Assembly (NCBI GenBank): GCA_963796685.1
Contig: CAWCMR010000008.1
Location: 352,001 to 416,000 of the forward strand
From: an uncultured delta proteobacterium
GTDB taxonomy: Bacteria; Myxococcota_A; Polyangia; Fen-1088
Reading direction: 5' to 3'
DNA length: 64,000 bases
Shown in pieces: positions 25,845-33,069 of this stretch. The stretch's first letter is position 1; every line of letters begins with the position of its first letter. The position numbers and the translations under genes are program-made. The notes below the pieces were generated by a model, which worked only from the letters and a program-made list of their open reading frames with translations, was not told the origin of the DNA and did not search any database.

Positions 25845-27086
25845 ATGGAACACACTGCTCACCGGGTATCCTCATTGTCGGCACTGGGTCTGTTTGCCGG
25901 CTTGCTCCTCATGAGCCCAGCGGTCCTGGCTGGCGACGTGACCCTTTCGGTCCTCGGGTTGGAGCCCGCGGCGGGTGCGCCCGAGGCGGTTGCGACCGCG
26001 GTGACGGAAGCCCTGCGACAGCGCGTGGCCGGGGCGCCCGGCTATCGACTGGTCCCGGGCAAGGATCTGGTCGAGGTGAAGCTCGTGTTCAGCTGCGCCG
26101 ACGAGGCGCCGGCCTGCATGACCCAGGCAGCGCAGAGTATCGGCTCGGCCAAGATCATCTTTGGCAACGTGCAGCCGGTAGGCACGGACGCCTATCTGGT
26201 CACGCTCAAGCTTCTCGACGCCGCGCGCGGCGTGGTCGAGTCGTGGACGTCCGAGCAAATCACCAAGGCACAGGCGACGCCCATAGGGCTGCGGGCGCCG
26301 GTGCAAAAGTGGTTCGCCGCGCTCACCGGACAGGCTCAGCCAGGGACGATCAAGGTGGTGGGCGGCGTGATCGGCGGGTCGGTTTGGCTCGATGGAGCGC
26401 AGGCAGGTCTGCTCGGCACCGACGGCCTGACCTTGGCCGGCGTCGGCGCCGGACCGCACCAAATCACCGTCAGCAAGAGCGGCTACGAGAAGTGGGAACG
26501 GACCGTGAACCTGGCCTCGGGCGCGACCGAAAAGGTGCAGGTGCAGCTCAAGGCCATCGAGGGAGCCACGGGCGCGTCGCCCGCAGCCGAGGTCGTGGCC
26601 GCCCCCGCCGCCCCCGTCGAGAGCGAGCCCGTGGCCACGGTCGAACCCTTCAACCAGGGCTCGCGCATCGGCGCCTGGGCGACCATGGGTCTGGGGCTCG
26701 TCGCCGTGGGCCTGGGTGGCTATTCGAGCTACAAGGTGACCAGCATCAACAGCAATCTCGACAAATTTCGCCGCTATCCGTGCGCAAGTGGCGGCGCCCC
26801 GAACTGCGCGGCGGACGGCAAGACCGGCCTGCAGCCGTTGGACCAGATACCGGGAGCCACCGAGTACGTGAGCAGCCAGAAAAGCACGGGCGATACCTAC
26901 ACCAAGCTGCAGTGGGTGGGTTACGGCGTGGGCGGCGCACTGCTGGTTACCTCGGGCGTGCTCATCTATCGTGGCTATTTCGCCCAGCCGACAACCGTGG
27001 CCTCGCGCAAGAGCCGCAGCACCTTCGTCGTGCTCCCTGCCGTCGCGCCGGGCAACATCGGTGCCCTCGCGTACGTGTCATTTTGA
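25845..27086 (+). CDS. Secreted PEGA-domain protein
   Basis: Signal peptide, VWLDG..GPHQITVSKSGY PEGA motif, hydrophobic C-terminal segments ending in F; the TGA lies in the first array unit. Confidence 0.8.
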   Translation: MEHTAHRVSSLSALGLFAGLLLMSPAVLAGDVTLSVLGLEPAAGAPEAVATAVTEALRQRVAGAPGYRLVPGKDLVEVKLVFSCADEAPACMTQAAQSIGSAKIIFGNVQPVGTDAYLVTLKLLDAARGVVESWTSEQITKAQATPIGLRAPVQKWFAALTGQAQPGTIKVVGGVIGGSVWLDGAQAGLLGTDGLTLAGVGAGPHQITVSKSGYEKWERTVNLASGATEKVQVQLKAIEGATGASPAAEVVAAPAAPVESEPVATVEPFNQGSRIGAWATMGLGLVAVGLGGYSSYKVTSINSNLDKFRRYPCASGGAPNCAADGKTGLQPLDQIPGATEYVSSQKSTGDTYTKLQWVGYGVGGALLVTSGVLIYRGYFAQPTTVASRKSRSTFVVLPAVAPGNIGALAYVSF

Positions 27087-27443
27087 AAAGGACCCTCGGA
27101 GGGTCCTTTAAATCCCCCGCGAAGAGCTCCGTCGGGCTTAGCCCGACTGCGCTCACGCGTTTTGAAAAGAACCCTCGGAGGGTCCTTTAAATCCCCCGCG
27201 AAGAGCTCCGTCGGGCTTAGCCCGACTGCGCTCACGCGTTTTGAAAAGAACCCTCGGAGGGTCCTTTAGATCCCCCGCGAAGAGCCTCCGTCGGGCTTAG
27301 CCCGACTGCGCTCACGCGTTTTGAAAAGAACCCTCGGAGGGTCCTTTAGATCCCCCGCGAAGAGCTCCGTCGGGCTTAGCCCGACTGCGCTCACGCGTTT
27401 TGAAAAGAACCCTCGGAGGGTCCTTTAGATCCCCCGCGAAGAG

Positions 27444-29518
27444 GTCGAGTAGCCAGGGGAGGTTACCCTCCCCCAGCTCTCACAGAACCGGACTTGTGGG
27501 CCTCACATCCGGCTCTTCGGGACGCTGGCGTTCGGGAGCGACCCGTAGTCCAGCGCCGGCATTGCTGCCCGCAGCTATCCTGGCTCCAGGGCCGGGTCCA
27601 TGAAGTCCAAGGCGTGATGGTCCTTCCACCGCTCGGCCAGGCTGACAAGCCCGCGTTCGGCAAAATATGCGTTGCGCAGTCCTCGTTCAACTACCGATGT
27701 GTGGCTCAGCGCCCACCAGGAGCGATGCCCCTTGTAGACCCCTTGCCACGCGGTTTTCGGTCTCACCCCCAGGCTGATGAGGTGTCGTGCGATGAAGCGT
27801 CTGCGTTTCCAGTGCCGTAGCACTATCGCTCGCAGCCGCCGCCTGATGTGTGCGTCGAGTGCCTGCAGCGTCCGCTCTTCCGCGGCCGTGCAGATACAGA
27901 AGAAGCCGATCCATCCGAGCAAATACGCGTTGACCTGTTTGATGCAGCCCTTGAGGGACTGCCCAAGGTTTCGCGGCGTCAGCTCTCGGACCTTCTCGTC
28001 AATGCGGCTTTTGCTCCGCGCCGACAGCAGCACCTCCGCTTCCCCCGTCAGCGGCTCGCGCCGCAGCCGGAATCCCAGAAAGTGCCGCTCTTCCGGTCGG
28101 GCCACCGCGCTCTTGGCCAAGTTCACCTTCAACCGCATCCGGCCTTCGATGAACTTGACCACGCTGGCCATCACACGCTGACCCGAGCGCTCGCTTCCGA
28201 CGTAGATGTTGCAGTCGTCCGCATAGCGCACGAAGCGGTGACCGCGTTGGGCAAGCTCGCGGTCGAGCTCGTCCAGCACGATATTGCTCAGTAACGGCGA
28301 AAGCGGACCACCTTGTGGCACTCCTTCTTCCGTCGCCACCACCACTCCGTCGGGCATCACCACCTTGGCTTTCAGCATCTGCCAGATGAGCTCGATGAGC
28401 CGCCGGTCCTTAACCCTCTGTTCTAGCCGCGCCACCAGCCGTTGCCAGTGGACCCGGTCAAAGAACTTTTCCAGGTCGAGGTCGACCACCCATTCGTACC
28501 CTTCCTCCAGATACTGCTTGGCCTCGGCGATGGCCGTGTGACAGCTGCGCCCAGGTCGGAAACCGTGGCTCGACGGGTGAAACGTCGGCTCATAATGCGG
28601 ACCGAGCACTTGGTGCACGGCCTGCTGAACCACGCGGTCCACCACGTTCGGTATGCCAAGGCCCCGCCGCCCGCCACCGCTCTTCGGTATCCATACCCGC
28701 CGGATGTCTCCGACTCGGTATGTCCCGTCGAGCAGCGACCGCGACAGCGCCGGTATCAGCGTCCCCAACCCCTTCGCCACTTCCCCCACGCTTTGCCGGT
28801 CCGGTCCAGGTGCGCCTTTGTTGGCCTTCACTTGCTCGAACGCTCTTTTCAGGTTTCCTTCGCTCGCTACCTCCTCCATCGTCATGGGCGGCAAGGTCCT
28901 CTCTTCCTCGTTCCCCGACTTCGGCACCTCGCTCCGCGCAGGCACGGGTTGGCCCGGATCCGCTTGGGCGGTGGTCCCTTTCGGGTTGTCGGCTGTCTCG
29001 GGAAACAGTCCGAGCTGCCTTGCCTCTTTGCTGGCCGTGGTCGCCTTCCCTCCCCGCCTTCTGGCGGTTGGAACCGGCTTTCGCCGGCCTTCCGGTATTA
29101 CGCGACCATCCGACTCCTCTTGTCCCTTCTTCATCTCGTCCTTTCGTTCTCGATGAATTCCGCTTGCGATTCCTCGCCGCGGAGGCCAAGAGGTCTCTCC
29201 GGGTAAGAACGCAGAACTTCGCACCGACTCCGTCGCCACTACGCGGGCCGCCCGACGAATATTGGGCTTTGCCGCCGAAGGCCAGCTTGCCCAGCGGTAC
29301 CCACGCCTTACGGCGCTTCACTTTCGTTCGGTTCGGCGCTGCACCATAGACTTCCACCAGACACCTCCTCGCGGGAGACGGGCCTTGCGGCCCGTCTGGC
29401 CTGGTGCTCCAGACCGGCGCCCTTGTCTCGTAGGTGGGAGGTTCCCTCCGTCAGGGTCCCCAGAGGACTTGGCTATTTCATGGCTTCACCTCTTGTTCTG
29501 CGTCCATGCCGGACGCAC
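27444..29518 (-). mobile_element. Group II intron, class IIC, copy 1 (2075 nt)
   Basis: 5' end GTGCGTCCGGCATGG, IIC-like GCGTTCTTACCCGGAGAG, domain V GAGCCGGATGTGAGGCCCACAAGTCCGGTTC, domain VI ending CTACTCGAC; removing it restores an intact 79-bp unit. Confidence 0.93.
27575..28885 (-). CDS. ltrA: Group II intron reverse transcriptase/maturase without endonuclease domain (copy 1)
   Basis: NKGAPG.D, RGLGIP..DR, GFRPGRS, DLEKFFD, PQGGPLSPLLSN, RYADD, maturase X domain, class C-like tail; frame is open to 29239, likely start MTMEEV. Confidence 0.93.
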   Translation of the reverse strand: MTMEEVASEGNLKRAFEQVKANKGAPGPDRQSVGEVAKGLGTLIPALSRSLLDGTYRVGDIRRVWIPKSGGGRRGLGIPNVVDRVVQQAVHQVLGPHYEPTFHPSSHGFRPGRSCHTAIAEAKQYLEEGYEWVVDLDLEKFFDRVHWQRLVARLEQRVKDRRLIELIWQMLKAKVVMPDGVVVATEEGVPQGGPLSPLLSNIVLDELDRELAQRGHRFVRYADDCNIYVGSERSGQRVMASVVKFIEGRMRLKVNLAKSAVARPEERHFLGFRLRREPLTGEAEVLLSARSKSRIDEKVRELTPRNLGQSLKGCIKQVNAYLLGWIGFFCICTAAEERTLQALDAHIRRRLRAIVLRHWKRRRFIARHLISLGVRPKTAWQGVYKGHRSWWALSHTSVVERGLRNAYFAERGLVSLAERWKDHHALDFMDPALEPG

Positions 29519-29597
29519 CTCCGTCGGGCTTAGCCCGACTGCGCTCACGCGTTTTGAAAAGAACCCTCGGAGGGTCCTTTAAATCCCCCGCGAAGAG

Positions 29598-31672
29598 GTC
29601 GAGTAGCCAGGGGAGGTTACCCTCCCCCAGCTCTCACAGAACCGGACTTGTGGGCCTCACATCCGGCTCTTCGGGACGCTGGCGTTCGGGAGCGACCCGT
29701 AGTCCAGCGCCGGCATTGCTGCCCGCAGCTATCCTGGCTCCAGGGCCGGGTCCATGAAGTCCAAGGCGTGATGGTCCTTCCACCGCTCGGCCAGGCTGAC
29801 AAGCCCGCGTTCGGCAAAATATGCGTTGCGCAGTCCTCGTTCAACTACCGATGTGTGGCTCAGCGCCCACCAGGAGCGATGCCCCTTGTAGACCCCTTGC
29901 CACGCGGTTTTCGGTCTCACCCCCAGGCTGATGAGGTGTCGTGCGATGAAGCGTCTGCGTTTCCAGTGCCGTAGCACTATCGCTCGCAGCCGCCGCCTGA
30001 TGTGTGCGTCGAGTGCCTGCAGCGTCCGCTCTTCCGCGGCCGTGCAGATACAGAAGAAGCCGATCCATCCGAGCAAATACGCGTTGACCTGTTTGATGCA
30101 GCCCTTGAGGGACTGCCCAAGGTTTCGCGGCGTCAGCTCTCGGACCTTCTCGTCAATGCGGCTTTTGCTCCGCGCCGACAGCAGCACCTCCGCTTCCCCC
30201 GTCAGCGGCTCGCGCCGCAGCCGGAATCCCAGAAAGTGCCGCTCTTCCGGTCGGGCCACCGCGCTCTTGGCCAAGTTCACCTTCAACCGCATCCGGCCTT
30301 CGATGAACTTGACCACGCTGGCCATCACACGCTGACCCGAGCGCTCGCTTCCGACGTAGATGTTGCAGTCGTCCGCATAGCGCACGAAGCGGTGACCGCG
30401 TTGGGCAAGCTCGCGGTCGAGCTCGTCCAGCACGATATTGCTCAGTAACGGCGAAAGCGGACCACCTTGTGGCACTCCTTCTTCCGTCGCCACCACCACT
30501 CCGTCGGGCATCACCACCTTGGCTTTCAGCATCTGCCAGATGAGCTCGATGAGCCGCCGGTCCTTAACCCTCTGTTCTAGCCGCGCCACCAGCCGTTGCC
30601 AGTGGACCCGGTCAAAGAACTTTTCCAGGTCGAGGTCGACCACCCATTCGTACCCTTCCTCCAGATACTGCTTGGCCTCGGCGATGGCCGTGTGACAGCT
30701 GCGCCCAGGTCGGAAACCGTGGCTCGACGGGTGAAACGTCGGCTCATAATGCGGACCGAGCACTTGGTGCACGGCCTGCTGAACCACGCGGTCCACCACG
30801 TTCGGTATGCCAAGGCCCCGCCGCCCGCCACCGCTCTTCGGTATCCATACCCGCCGGATGTCTCCGACTCGGTATGTCCCGTCGAGCAGCGACCGCGACA
30901 GCGCCGGTATCAGCGTCCCCAACCCCTTCGCCACTTCCCCCACGCTTTGCCGGTCCGGTCCAGGTGCGCCTTTGTTGGCCTTCACTTGCTCGAACGCTCT
31001 TTTCAGGTTTCCTTCGCTCGCTACCTCCTCCATCGTCATGGGCGGCAAGGTCCTCTCTTCCTCGTTCCCCGACTTCGGCACCTCGCTCCGCGCAGGCACG
31101 GGTTGGCCCGGATCCGCTTGGGCGGTGGTCCCTTTCGGGTTGTCGGCTGTCTCGGGAAACAGTCCGAGCTGCCTTGCCTCTTTGCTGGCCGTGGTCGCCT
31201 TCCCTCCCCGCCTTCTGGCGGTTGGAACCGGCTTTCGCCGGCCTTCCGGTATTACGCGACCATCCGACTCCTCTTGTCCCTTCTTCATCTCGTCCTTTCG
31301 TTCTCGATGAATTCCGCTTGCGATTCCTCGCCGCGGAGGCCAAGAGGTCTCTCCGGGTAAGAACGCAGAACTTCGCACCGACTCCGTCGCCACTACGCGG
31401 GCCGCCCGACGAATATTGGGCTTTGCCGCCGAAGGCCAGCTTGCCCAGCGGTACCCACGCCTTACGGCGCTTCACTTTCGTTCGGTTCGGCGCTGCACCA
31501 TAGACTTCCACCAGACACCTCCTCGCGGGAGACGGGCCTTGCGGCCCGTCTGGCCTGGTGCTCCAGACCGGCGCCCTTGTCTCGTAGGTGGGAGGTTCCC
31601 TCCGTCAGGGTCCCCAGAGGACTTGGCTATTTCATGGCTTCACCTCTTGTTCTGCGTCCATGCCGGACGCAC
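29598..31672 (-). mobile_element. Group II intron, class IIC, copy 2 (2075 nt), apparently identical to copy 1
   Basis: Same ends and identical ORF translations; offset 2154 = 2075 + 79. Confidence 0.93.
29729..31039 (-). CDS. ltrA: Group II intron reverse transcriptase/maturase (copy 2)
   Basis: Translation identical to copy 1 (YADD); frame open to 31393. Confidence 0.93.
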   Translation of the reverse strand: MTMEEVASEGNLKRAFEQVKANKGAPGPDRQSVGEVAKGLGTLIPALSRSLLDGTYRVGDIRRVWIPKSGGGRRGLGIPNVVDRVVQQAVHQVLGPHYEPTFHPSSHGFRPGRSCHTAIAEAKQYLEEGYEWVVDLDLEKFFDRVHWQRLVARLEQRVKDRRLIELIWQMLKAKVVMPDGVVVATEEGVPQGGPLSPLLSNIVLDELDRELAQRGHRFVRYADDCNIYVGSERSGQRVMASVVKFIEGRMRLKVNLAKSAVARPEERHFLGFRLRREPLTGEAEVLLSARSKSRIDEKVRELTPRNLGQSLKGCIKQVNAYLLGWIGFFCICTAAEERTLQALDAHIRRRLRAIVLRHWKRRRFIARHLISLGVRPKTAWQGVYKGHRSWWALSHTSVVERGLRNAYFAERGLVSLAERWKDHHALDFMDPALEPG

Positions 31673-31912
31673 CTCCGTCGGGCTTAGCCCGACTGCGCTC
31701 ACGCGTTTTGAAAAGAACCCTCGGAGGGTCCTTTAAATCCCCCGCGAAGAGCTCCGTCGGGCTTAGCCCGACTGCGCTCACGCGTTTTGAAAAGAACCCT
31801 CGGAGGGTCCTTTAAATCCCCCGCGAAGAGCTTCCGTCGGGCTTAGCCCGACTGCGCCCACGCGTTTTGAAAAGAACCCTCGGAGGGTCCTTTAGATCCG
31901 GGGTCCTTTGGG

Positions 31913-32272
31913 TCACCGCTTCATGAGGATGCGAACGAGCACGGTCGCCAAGATGCCCCACGCAACGGTGGCGATGGGCCAGTAGGGCGCGGCCCGGCGG
32001 CGAACGCGCGAGAAGGTTCGCAGCCCAAGCCCCACGTTCACCGTGGAAAGAACGAGCAGAAAGGCCATCCAGGTGCGGCTCATGTCGCTGTGTCGCTGGG
32101 GTGACAGGGCGTAGGCCAGGGCGCCTACGAGAAAGATCGACCCCATCGCCGATTTCCCGATAGCCCAGCGAAGCGCACGCGCACGCAATTGGGCAGCACG
32201 CACCTGGCGCAAGGACCGCGGATTCCCGGACGAGGGAGGACCTGTCGGCTTGTCGAAGAGATCCTGGCTCAT
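31913..32272 (-). CDS. Small membrane protein (about 3 TM helices)
   Basis: Three hydrophobic segments; converges on the array. Confidence 0.6.
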   Translation of the reverse strand: MSQDLFDKPTGPPSSGNPRSLRQVRAAQLRARALRWAIGKSAMGSIFLVGALAYALSPQRHSDMSRTWMAFLLVLSTVNVGLGLRTFSRVRRRAAPYWPIATVAWGILATVLVRILMKR

Positions 32273-32337
32273 GCGCCTTGCCAAACACTAGCCTTTGTTG
32301 GCGCCACGTGCACGGACATACCGGTTTTCGCGCTAGA

Positions 32338-33069
32338 ATGCCCTCGCCCATGACCACCACGACGCACCTCGTGCTCGACATCGAAACCATACCCGACGCC
32401 GACCTGTATGCGCCCGCGCAACCGAGCCCGGGAACCGAGCGAACATTCCCACCCATCTTCGCGTGCAAGCCGGTCGTCATCGGCGTGATGTGGCTGGACG
32501 AGAACCTGGTTTGCAAGAAGACCGGCACCATCGGCGAAGGCAAGGACGAAGGCGGAATGCTGGCCGATTTCGCCGAGTTTATGGCCAAGTGGAAACCCAC
32601 CATCGTGAGCTGGAACGGCCGCGGTTTCGACCTGCCCGTGCTCATGCTGCGCAGCCTGCGCTACGGCGTCTCGGCGCCCTGGTACTATCAAAATCGCGAC
32701 TACCGCTACCGCTACAGCAACGAGGGCCACCTCGACCTGTGCGACGTGCTCGCCGATCACGGAGCTACCCGCATGACCTCCCTGCACGGCGCGGCACGGC
32801 TGATCGGCTTGCCAGGCAAGGACGGCGTCGATGGCAGCCAAGTCGAAGCCATGTATCGCACCGGCCAGATCGAGGCCCTGCGCGGCTACTGCCTGTCCGA
32901 CGTGGCACAAACCGCGTTCCTCTTCTTGCGCTACCGTCTGCTCTCCGGCCTGCTCGATCGGCCCGCCTACACCGTCGCCGCGACCAACTTGCTGGCCGCC
33001 GTTTCCGCGGATCCGCGCCTGGCCTCGCTGGTGGCACGGATCGAGCGAGACAGGCTATTGCTCGAGTAG
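32338..33069 (+). CDS. DEDD 3'-5' exonuclease, PolB-like exo2 family
   Basis: VLDIET, SWNGRGFDLPVL, HLDL, YCLSDV. Confidence 0.85.
   Translation: MPSPMTTTTHLVLDIETIPDADLYAPAQPSPGTERTFPPIFACKPVVIGVMWLDENLVCKKTGTIGEGKDEGGMLADFAEFMAKWKPTIVSWNGRGFDLPVLMLRSLRYGVSAPWYYQNRDYRYRYSNEGHLDLCDVLADHGATRMTSLHGAARLIGLPGKDGVDGSQVEAMYRTGQIEALRGYCLSDVAQTAFLFLRYRLLSGLLDRPAYTVAATNLLAAVSADPRLASLVARIERDRLLLE

Follow-up and report, generated by a model that had tools for sequence, protein, structure and literature searches.

Group II introns of bacterial class C (IIC) have been described downstream of terminator motifs "or other inverted repeats", as an excerpt of Toor et al. (2006) words it, and a passage of Zimmerly and Semper (2015) counts homing sites, terminators and integron attC sites as the three known specificities. 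In a table of Tobes and Pareja (2006), a group II intron of Pseudomonas putida KT2440 is associated with repetitive extragenic palindromes (REP) in two of its nine copies. REP sequences of P. putida are also given as targets of IS110-family elements in excerpts of PMC8450116 and PMC12288879, and bacterial interspersed mosaic elements (BIMEs), as outlined in part of PMC2817692, contain the same REP in alternating orientation. The locus analyzed here lies in a window of 64,000 nt (contig CAWCMR010000008.1 of assembly GCA_963796685.1, positions 352,001 to 416,000) from an uncultured member of the Polyangia, and consists of a 79-bp tandem array in which two neighboring units are each interrupted by a group II intron. 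Positions without prefix refer to this window, while prefixes such as C25 denote other sequences of the same genome (G000).

A preliminary description of the window had taken the array and the introns for a dedicated repeat-array/retroelement pairing. We found, instead, an ordinary mobile group IIC intron, which most probably (at roughly 85%) uses generic hairpin targeting and resides in an array not made for it. This reading is carried by what we observed of the class of the intron, its copy number and the context of every insertion, by an array family that does not depend on the intron, and by comparative evidence for the exon-binding site.

Class of the intron and structure of its target

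The intron is a bacterial class C group II intron. In both copies its protein comprises the RVT_1 and GIIM domains only, with no nuclease or endonuclease domain among the Pfam matches. The 436-aa product aligns over its full length with the GsI-IIC reverse transcriptase (RT; E = 6.3e-110, residues 4-415 of 428), the next protein match being a second IIC maturase (4.4e-87). Rfam models matched the minus strand of both inserts (RF02001 with 79.7 bits and RF00029 with 46.6 bits). The intron starts with GTGCG and ends with GAC, in agreement with the GUGYG and AY ends of group II introns, and the loop region of its domain 5 is three positions shorter than the RF00029 model. IIC introns typically have a shortened domain 5. 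An RT and maturase without endonuclease, a group II ribozyme, insertion behind a stem-loop and a short predicted pairing between exon-binding site 1 (EBS1) and intron-binding site 1 (IBS1) were thus all found. In turn, the intrinsic terminator (hairpin and T run), which is the usual though not obligatory class C target, was present at 0/10 sites, and the integron attC site of the IIC-attC subclass was likewise absent.

The array is composed of eight 79/80-bp units and a 35-nt partial ninth, as seen from a unit-by-unit readout and from Tandem Repeats Finder (Table 1). Units 5 and 6 (U5 and U6) are broken at one identical bond, between GAAGAG and CTCCGTC of the plus strand, by complete 2075-nt introns; in intron sense, copy 1 is inserted between GGAG and CTC of U5. 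The two copies are identical at 2075/2075 positions, and their spacing equals exactly one period of 2154 nt. When the flanks of either intron were joined by script, the resulting 120 nt matched uninterrupted units at 100%. The joined flanks thus make up an intact unit, which means that no target duplication occurred and that exact excision would restore a unit. The interrupted units can still be told apart, as unit position 30 is G in the left part of U5 and A in that of U6.

Each unit carries two hairpins. Hairpin 1 (GAACCCTC-GGA-GGGTCC) has A/T-rich runs on its flanks, and hairpin 2 (GTCGGGC-TTA-GCCCGAC) is located within an extended imperfect stem. Folded as single-stranded DNA, two units reach -50.3 kcal/mol (z = -7.18), and none of 200 shuffled sequences was equally stable. 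Read in intron sense, GTCGGGC-TAA-GCCCGAC-GGAG forms the end of the 5′ exon, i.e., the insertion lies 4 nt after the hairpin, and no T run follows. Taking GTTRRRY / RYYYAAC as the attC core consensus, we detected no match on either strand of the 669-nt intron-free array, and a terminator scan called no terminator-like site in it. Hairpin 1, considered as a terminator for its A/T-rich flanks, remained below the threshold of that scan.

As far as structure is concerned, the preliminary description proved accurate in every detail that could be checked: the number of units and the partial ninth, the split of U5 and U6 with no target duplication, the assignment to class IIC without endonuclease and a target that is neither terminator nor attC site were all recovered. 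The restoration of a unit by precise splicing, which it had also proposed, is what the joined flanks would predict. The only two indels of the array, at 27285-27286 (U3) and 31832-31833 (U8), are located no more than 2 nt from the intron insertion point. That of U3 is an extra C (in intron sense an extra G, the same as the first base of the intron), and that of U8 an extra T. These indels could be due to chance, to slippage or to imprecise intron loss that left scars.

Intron copies and their targets across the genome

The genome to which the window belongs (7.3 Mb in 26 contigs, apparently a metagenome bin, 88.6% complete with 6.5% contamination) holds 11 full-length copies of the intron at 99.8% identity or more and one 146-nt fragment. 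Only the two window copies are found in the 79-bp unit. The remaining nine occur elsewhere, following GC-rich hairpins of no fewer than five other contexts, none with a T run after it. Ten copies have a 5′ flank that can be read; in each of them a stable hairpin (-15 to -25 kcal/mol) and a tail of 0-4 nt close the 5′ exon, and in none does a T run follow the hairpin. The flanks fall into at least six different types. Apart from the window pair, two copies (on C25) break solitary units of a related two-hairpin repeat, so that units of this family are interrupted by 4/11 copies. Three copies follow a CCCCGC...GCGGGG-type hairpin, two a GCCCAGC-TTT-GCTGGGC-GAAG hairpin with which an IS110-family element ends, and one an unrelated hairpin on C12. 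All ten evaluable copies lie in repeated DNA, and for every empty site that was rebuilt vacant paralogues exist, with 1 to about 99 junction-spanning matches. Hence, the expectation that all copies would reside in the repeat of the window does not hold, since hairpins of other repeat families and the end of the IS110-family element are used as well.

The 11 copies vary at seven alignment columns, and their protein frame is intact in seven. Their high identity, precise junctions and the 7/11 intact frames lead us to predict, indirectly, that the intron is self-splicing and retromobile. A 1-nt insertion at column 975 (three times a C and once a G) truncates the frame at residue 142 in the other four, located at C25:483846-485921, C25:1381851-1383927, C13:680090-682165 and C12:26453-28528. 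This recurrent insertion might represent real decay or a systematic sequencing error.

A second pair of introns was found at C25:481403-485921 (L021), where two copies in the same orientation are 368 nt apart within a composite repeat tract. They use two different hairpins of this tract and differ at four alignment columns, which indicates that they were inserted independently.

The IS110-family element (DEDD_Tnp_IS110 and Transposase_20 domains; 1.26-1.31 kb, 99.5-100% identity) was observed at C11:99900-101600 (L019). It is present in at least six copies in the genome, with about six besides that of L019, e.g., at C25:1055127-1056389, and its end carries or abuts the GCCCAGC-TTT-GCTGGGC-GAAG hairpin behind which two introns are inserted. 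One copy of the element (C25:1542009-1543311) is adjoined by a tandem tract with a period of 186 bp.

Closely related introns were also noted in metagenomic sequences. A metagenome scan with the intron 5′ end retrieved one contig (L102, site at 2185-2260) bearing a 99.4%-identical intron, of which only the 5′ junction was used. Its 5′ flank is a two-hairpin repeat unit, whereas the sequence on the 3′ side shows no relation to that unit. Either different intron copies were joined in a chimeric contig, or copies may have recombined. In a wetland metagenome of another study (run X2), an intron about 1% different was seen at the end corresponding to window position 29597, with another two-hairpin family unit (...CCCTCCCGCGCTATG, plus strand) as its 3′ exon, similar to the site at C25:483477.

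In order to assign EBS1, the core of domain 1 was aligned for the window intron and 13 relatives with placeable 5′ ends. We found that the loop after a conserved "GC" pairs with the 5′-exon tail of each intron, e.g., GACUAA with UUAGUC, AACG with CGUU and AAUA with UAUU. The mean number of contiguous pairs was 4.07 for cognate combinations vs. 1.44 for 174 non-cognate ones, and 13 of the 14 introns showed at least three. This comparison suggests that EBS1 of the window intron is CUUC(G), formed by intron nt 238/239-242 and G243, and that its partner would be the CGGAG tail behind hairpin 2. Another candidate for EBS1, the loop CCUCUU (intron nt 326-331), was dismissed in favor of nt 239-243, since it is conserved in relatives regardless of the exon tail.

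The proposed EBS1 would form six contiguous pairs with the tail CCGAAG of another two-hairpin unit (L102), five with CGGAG of the window array and with CGAAG of the IS110-type site, and four with GGGGAG and GAGAGG of other repeat hairpins. For CCAGAG of a two-hairpin family unit and CATAGG of the C12 hairpin the number falls to three, and for CCATAG of another family unit to two. Bases upstream of position -5 are those of the hairpin stem and vary from site to site, with no conserved IBS2. Among the relatives, which share 45-51% protein identity with the window intron, 6/13 follow a hairpin and a run of at least four T, and most others have T-containing tails. Reading CUUC(G), EBS1 of the window intron would pair with purine tails (CGGAG, CGAAG) and not with U-rich terminator tails of the kind used by its more distant relatives. 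A purine-tail EBS1 would suit a GC-rich host whose hairpins are without U tracts, with the class C mechanism kept. It probably provides a natural example of retargeting, traced by covariation across 14 introns.

Reverse splicing into single-stranded DNA is an established route for class C introns. By this route, the window intron would insert a few bases after a GC-rich hairpin, with EBS1 pairing to tails such as CGGAG or CGAAG. Because hairpin 2 is followed by CGGAG and then C, with a 5-bp match to EBS1, each unit would be a usable and harmless slot between convergent genes. Matched sites, defined by a perfectly paired stem of 6 bp or more, a tail of 4 nt and CGRAG, number 253 genome-wide. 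Seven of them are units of the window array, in support of the earlier view that the array offers several equivalent intergenic slots. Only four of the 253 are occupied, i.e., the two in the window and two of the IS110 type, and arrays with 8 (on C25), 6 (on C15), 5 and 5 matched slots are empty.

The repeat family and the origin of the adjacent pair

The array belongs to a family of intergenic two-hairpin repeats, each of about 80 bp, and represents one of its loci. An iterated nhmmer search with a unit profile revealed 201 non-redundant units at 119 loci of the genome, 28 of which have at least two units and the largest 11. Whole-genome Tandem Repeats Finder output includes many arrays with a period of 77-86 and a common plan, i.e., hairpin 2, purine tail, CGCGGG.. 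and hairpin 1. Units are arranged head to tail on one strand, each with two different hairpins. Both hairpins exhibit compensatory change (1440/1535 cells paired vs. 421-790 of 1325-1567 with shifted partners), and several hairpin pairs alternate among G-C, C-G, A-T and T-A. Likeness among units amounts to 98-100% within an array and about 70-85% between arrays, which points to concerted evolution or repeated local re-expansion. A REP/RAYT origin of the array was set aside, as no match to the Y1 (RAYT) transposase PF01797 was found in this 88.6%-complete genome, which does not prove its absence; the control matched 6/14 named genomes. No description of the family was found in the literature searched, where one under a taxon name could be missed.

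The family was matched in 12/12 same-genus genomes searched and in some other genera of the family-level taxon, while the window intron was detected in 0/30 relatives, its best non-self match being 82% over 197 nt. Arrays in intron-free genomes, for which a search had been proposed beforehand, thus do exist. In the closest relative (G002), the orthologous locus shares 86% identity and is free of introns; its 3.4 units of 77 bp are 100% identical to one another. The PEGA-domain gene ends there in the first unit in the same array phase, and the same convergent open reading frame (ORF) end abuts the array. G002 units differ from those of the window at about ten positions per unit, and their tail, GGAA, is mismatched to EBS1 at position -1. 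In two more distant congeners no family unit occurs at the orthologous locus. The intron-free G002 array implies that the array predates the arrival of the intron, and that changes of copy number and homogenization need no intron. The family is an older, genus-wide one whose arrays expand, contract and homogenize on their own. Other IIC introns of same-genus genomes lie behind other hairpins, with no family units in the fetched loci.

These data bear directly on the preliminary proposal of a dedicated system, in which the array is a landing pad filled serially by the intron and amplification of intron plus unit, followed by intron loss, builds arrays. Copies of the intron behind ordinary, unrelated terminators had been named at the outset as a finding that would count against it, and in substance this is what we observed, with 9/11 copies outside the array behind unrelated hairpins. 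That all ten evaluable copies are in repeated DNA speaks for the proposal, yet the intron breaks no more than 4 of the approximately 201 family units, and arrays of 5-11 units exist without an intron. The local density of insertions (2/8 units filled here vs. 2/246 matched sites elsewhere) and the two array indels, readable as excision scars, also fit it. They are set against a family present in all 12 congeners and an intron in none of the 30 relatives, an orthologous G002 array with neither an intron nor a fully matching tail, and other IIC introns of the genus away from family units. We regard the dedicated system as largely refuted and give it a very slim chance. Of its amplification step, a block duplication stays a live option for the second copy, whereas growth of the array by this route is not needed to explain arrays such as that of G002. 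A broader form of specialization, in which the intron lineage is a specialist of the hairpin-repeat modules of the host genus and EBS1 shifted from the A-rich loops of terminator-seeking relatives to CUUC(G), in keeping with the conserved purine tails next to these hairpins, seems to us conceivable though rather unlikely. If true, repeat families and not any single array would be the homing sites, and IIC introns would have a third class of target in addition to terminators and attC. Tracts dense in hairpins would then gather more than one copy, as in the two pairs found among the 11 copies, and unit recombination could alter the intron copy number without retromobility.

An ordinary intron with generic hairpin targeting, the reading that we prefer, has to account for two neighboring slots being filled, either by a second retrohoming event with local bias or by unit recombination. 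Adjacency is improbable under random independent insertion and thus requires a local cause: for four insertions placed at random among the 253 sites, the expected share of trials is 0.6% with an adjacent pair and 1.7% with a pair in the same cluster, and among 202 family units an adjacent pair is expected in 2.5%. We favor a second retrohoming event, at about even odds, over unequal crossing-over. The latter is a rival for the origin of the second copy only, and holds that the intron entered the array once and that unequal crossing-over or slipped replication duplicated the 2154-bp block of intron and unit. We consider it a serious contender, albeit somewhat short of even odds. Two copies at 100% identity exactly one period apart are what it would produce, adjacent pairs are rare if insertions are independent, and arrays do change in copy number and homogenize (3.4 units in G002 vs. 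8.4 here at the same locus). Yet the blocks are not identical: the G/A difference at unit position 30 would confine the exchange to the final 16 of 79 homologous bases, and 79 bp is a short homology across a 2-kb insert. Moreover, the C25 pair demonstrates that two insertions of independent origin can come to lie as close as 368 nt here. An assembly artefact, i.e., a real chromosome with one intron and a shorter array in which the assembler duplicated the 2154-bp repeat, appears very improbable. A single 26-contig assembly of an apparent bin with 6.5% contamination and 11 intron copies, one contig of which begins 1 base before an intron copy, invites this suspicion, as do the public contigs that break at intron ends. 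A spurious loop, however, would not be expected to yield blocks that differ by a flanking base (G/A) among distinguishable neighboring units, and all 11 copies at 99.8% identity or more are resolved inside contigs of up to 2.1 Mb, which suggests reads longer than the intron.

Several points weigh against the reading that we prefer. Splicing and mobility of the intron are predicted from sequence alone, and the two-intron arrangement is known from one assembly. The site rule does not account for the choice of sites, with 4/253 filled, and the adjacent pair requires a local cause in addition. The window copies, being identical and carrying the majority base at all seven variable columns, give no clue to the origin of the second one. 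Public Logan contigs speak neither for nor against the two-intron arrangement, as their pieces end at the intron ends (X1: 27443-28226 and 28199-29519) and none bridges a unit-intron junction here. A 34-nt exact pattern of the unit across the insertion point had no match in the metagenome scan. The excess of neighboring insertions, with pairs 79 and 368 nt apart, is nevertheless of interest, as it bears on local re-insertion of endonuclease-less introns vs. repeat recombination.

A similar arrangement was observed in a Planctomycetota genome record (L028, about 5.5 kb), where a related IIC intron (58% protein identity) occurs twice in direct orientation, 2305 nt apart. An inverted partial copy adjoins the pair, and the surrounding DNA, with tandem repeats of about 355 nt, is shared past the 5′ side of the intron, which blurs its exact 5′ boundary. 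This direct pair makes it likely that the genome studied here is not the only one with tandem IIC copies.

As for the gene context, the array separates a PEGA-domain protein gene, the TGA stop of which (27084-27086) falls within the first repeat unit, from a convergent downstream ORF. The latter is overlapped by a 277-aa frame (31812-32645) with no Pfam match. As the downstream ORF reads toward the array in the sense of the introns, read-through from it could supply intron RNA. Outside the window, two long CRISPR-like arrays of 36-37-bp repeats with a spacing of about 71-73 bp were noted at C5:380297-387094 and C9:89584-100539.

Table 1. Features of the intron-bearing array, its flanks and further arrays of the repeat family.
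Feature	Position	Strand	Details
PEGA-domain protein gene, upstream flank	25845..27086	+	ORF list; Pfam PEGA 4.7e-08
U1-U4 and left 46 nt of U5	27081..27443		U1-U4 intact, 79, 79, 80 and 79 nt; Tandem Repeats Finder (79-bp array, 4.6 copies, 98% matches, score 696), unit table, fold
U5, split	27398-27443 and 29519-29551		46 nt + 33 nt; unit table
Group IIC intron copy 1	27444..29518	-	2075 nt; 5′ GTGCG ... CTCGAC 3′; Rfam, empty-unit comparison
Domains 5/6 and 3′ end of copy 1 (RF00029)	27444..27517	-	46.6 bits; model end = last intron base
RT/maturase of copy 1	27575..28885	-	436 aa + stop; Pfam RVT_1 5.6e-43, GIIM 2.7e-15; frame intact
Domain 1-4 core of copy 1 (group-II-D1D4-3, RF02001)	29208..29378	-	79.7 bits, gathering score 32
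Proposed EBS1 of copy 1	29277..29281	-	CUUC, then G243; exon-tail covariation
Inter-intron 79 nt	29519..29597		Right 33 nt of U5 + left 46 nt of U6; sequence, unit table
U6, split	29552-29597 and 31673-31705		46 nt + 33 nt; unit table
Group IIC intron copy 2	29598..31672	-	2075 nt, same as copy 1
Domains 5/6 of copy 2	29598-29671	-	RF00029
Protein frame of copy 2	29729-31039	-	RVT_1 + GIIM
Right 33 nt of U6, U7, U8 and partial U9	31673..31899		U7 79 nt, U8 80 nt, U9 35 nt (31865-31899); Tandem Repeats Finder (period 79, 2.9 copies, 97% matches, score 431), unit table
Convergent downstream ORF	31913..32284	-	123 aa; ORF list
Further array, same genome	C6:15671-16555		11 units
Further array, same genome	C25:2111416-2112072		8 units
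Further array, same genome	C15:358152-358641		
Further array, same genome	C5:113858-114292		
Array in a relative (G012)	L005 1500-1842		

Comparison with known systems

Like the terminator-targeting IIC introns (B.h.I1, GsI-IIC), the window intron encodes an RT/maturase without endonuclease, with the GsI-IIC RT as its best solved relative. It also shares with them the insertion a few nt after a DNA stem-loop, a short 5′-exon pairing and many intergenic copies. In contrast to these introns, no T run is present at any of its ten sites, and its evaluable copies reside in repeated hairpin modules, not behind single-copy gene terminators. Its EBS1, proposed as CUUC(G), would direct it to purine tails, whereas the relatives possess A-rich loops. 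With the IIC-attC introns (S.ma.I2) it has in common the class, a folded imperfect inverted repeat that is not a terminator and, as far as the relevant passage of Zimmerly and Semper (2015) goes, a tandem-like recurrence. It departs from them in that the window array consists of 79-bp head-to-tail units with neither cassettes nor attC core motifs of the consensus used above.

The P. putida KT2440 intron resembles that of the window in its association with repetitive extragenic palindromes, for which the excerpt of Tobes and Pareja (2006) offers a single table row and no mechanism. Here, in contrast, 4/11 copies break one family, two of them in adjacent units, and the rest are found in other hairpin repeats. 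The repeat family itself is reminiscent of REP/BIME arrays, as its 201 units at 119 loci are abundant, intergenic and palindromic, form regularly spaced clusters and show compensatory change. Just as REP sequences of P. putida are linked with IS110 (PMC8450116 and PMC12288879, in the parts concerned), an IS110-family element here carries or abuts a target hairpin of the intron. Unlike BIMEs as outlined in PMC2817692, in which one REP alternates, the window family has two different hairpins head to tail, and no Y1 (RAYT) transposase was found in the 88.6%-complete genome. With no RAYT found and units in this arrangement, the family resembles BIME arrays in architecture, yet is not a member of them. 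It merits attention on its own as a genus-wide, tandem two-hairpin family that homogenizes within arrays and hosts or abuts an IS110-family element.

We found no description of a tandem hairpin array with IIC introns in neighboring units in the literature searched, which did not cover supplements (e.g., that of PMC7306698). The preliminary description had known of no such system. IIC introns behind inverted repeats, and a group II intron associated with REP elements, are already in print. The locus is thus that of a class C intron with a purine-tail EBS1 in hairpin repeats of its host, which would follow a known mechanism and lends no support to an array/intron "system". The main value of the analysis lies in this correction, by which the presumed array/retroelement system becomes a standard class C intron in one of many hairpin repeats.

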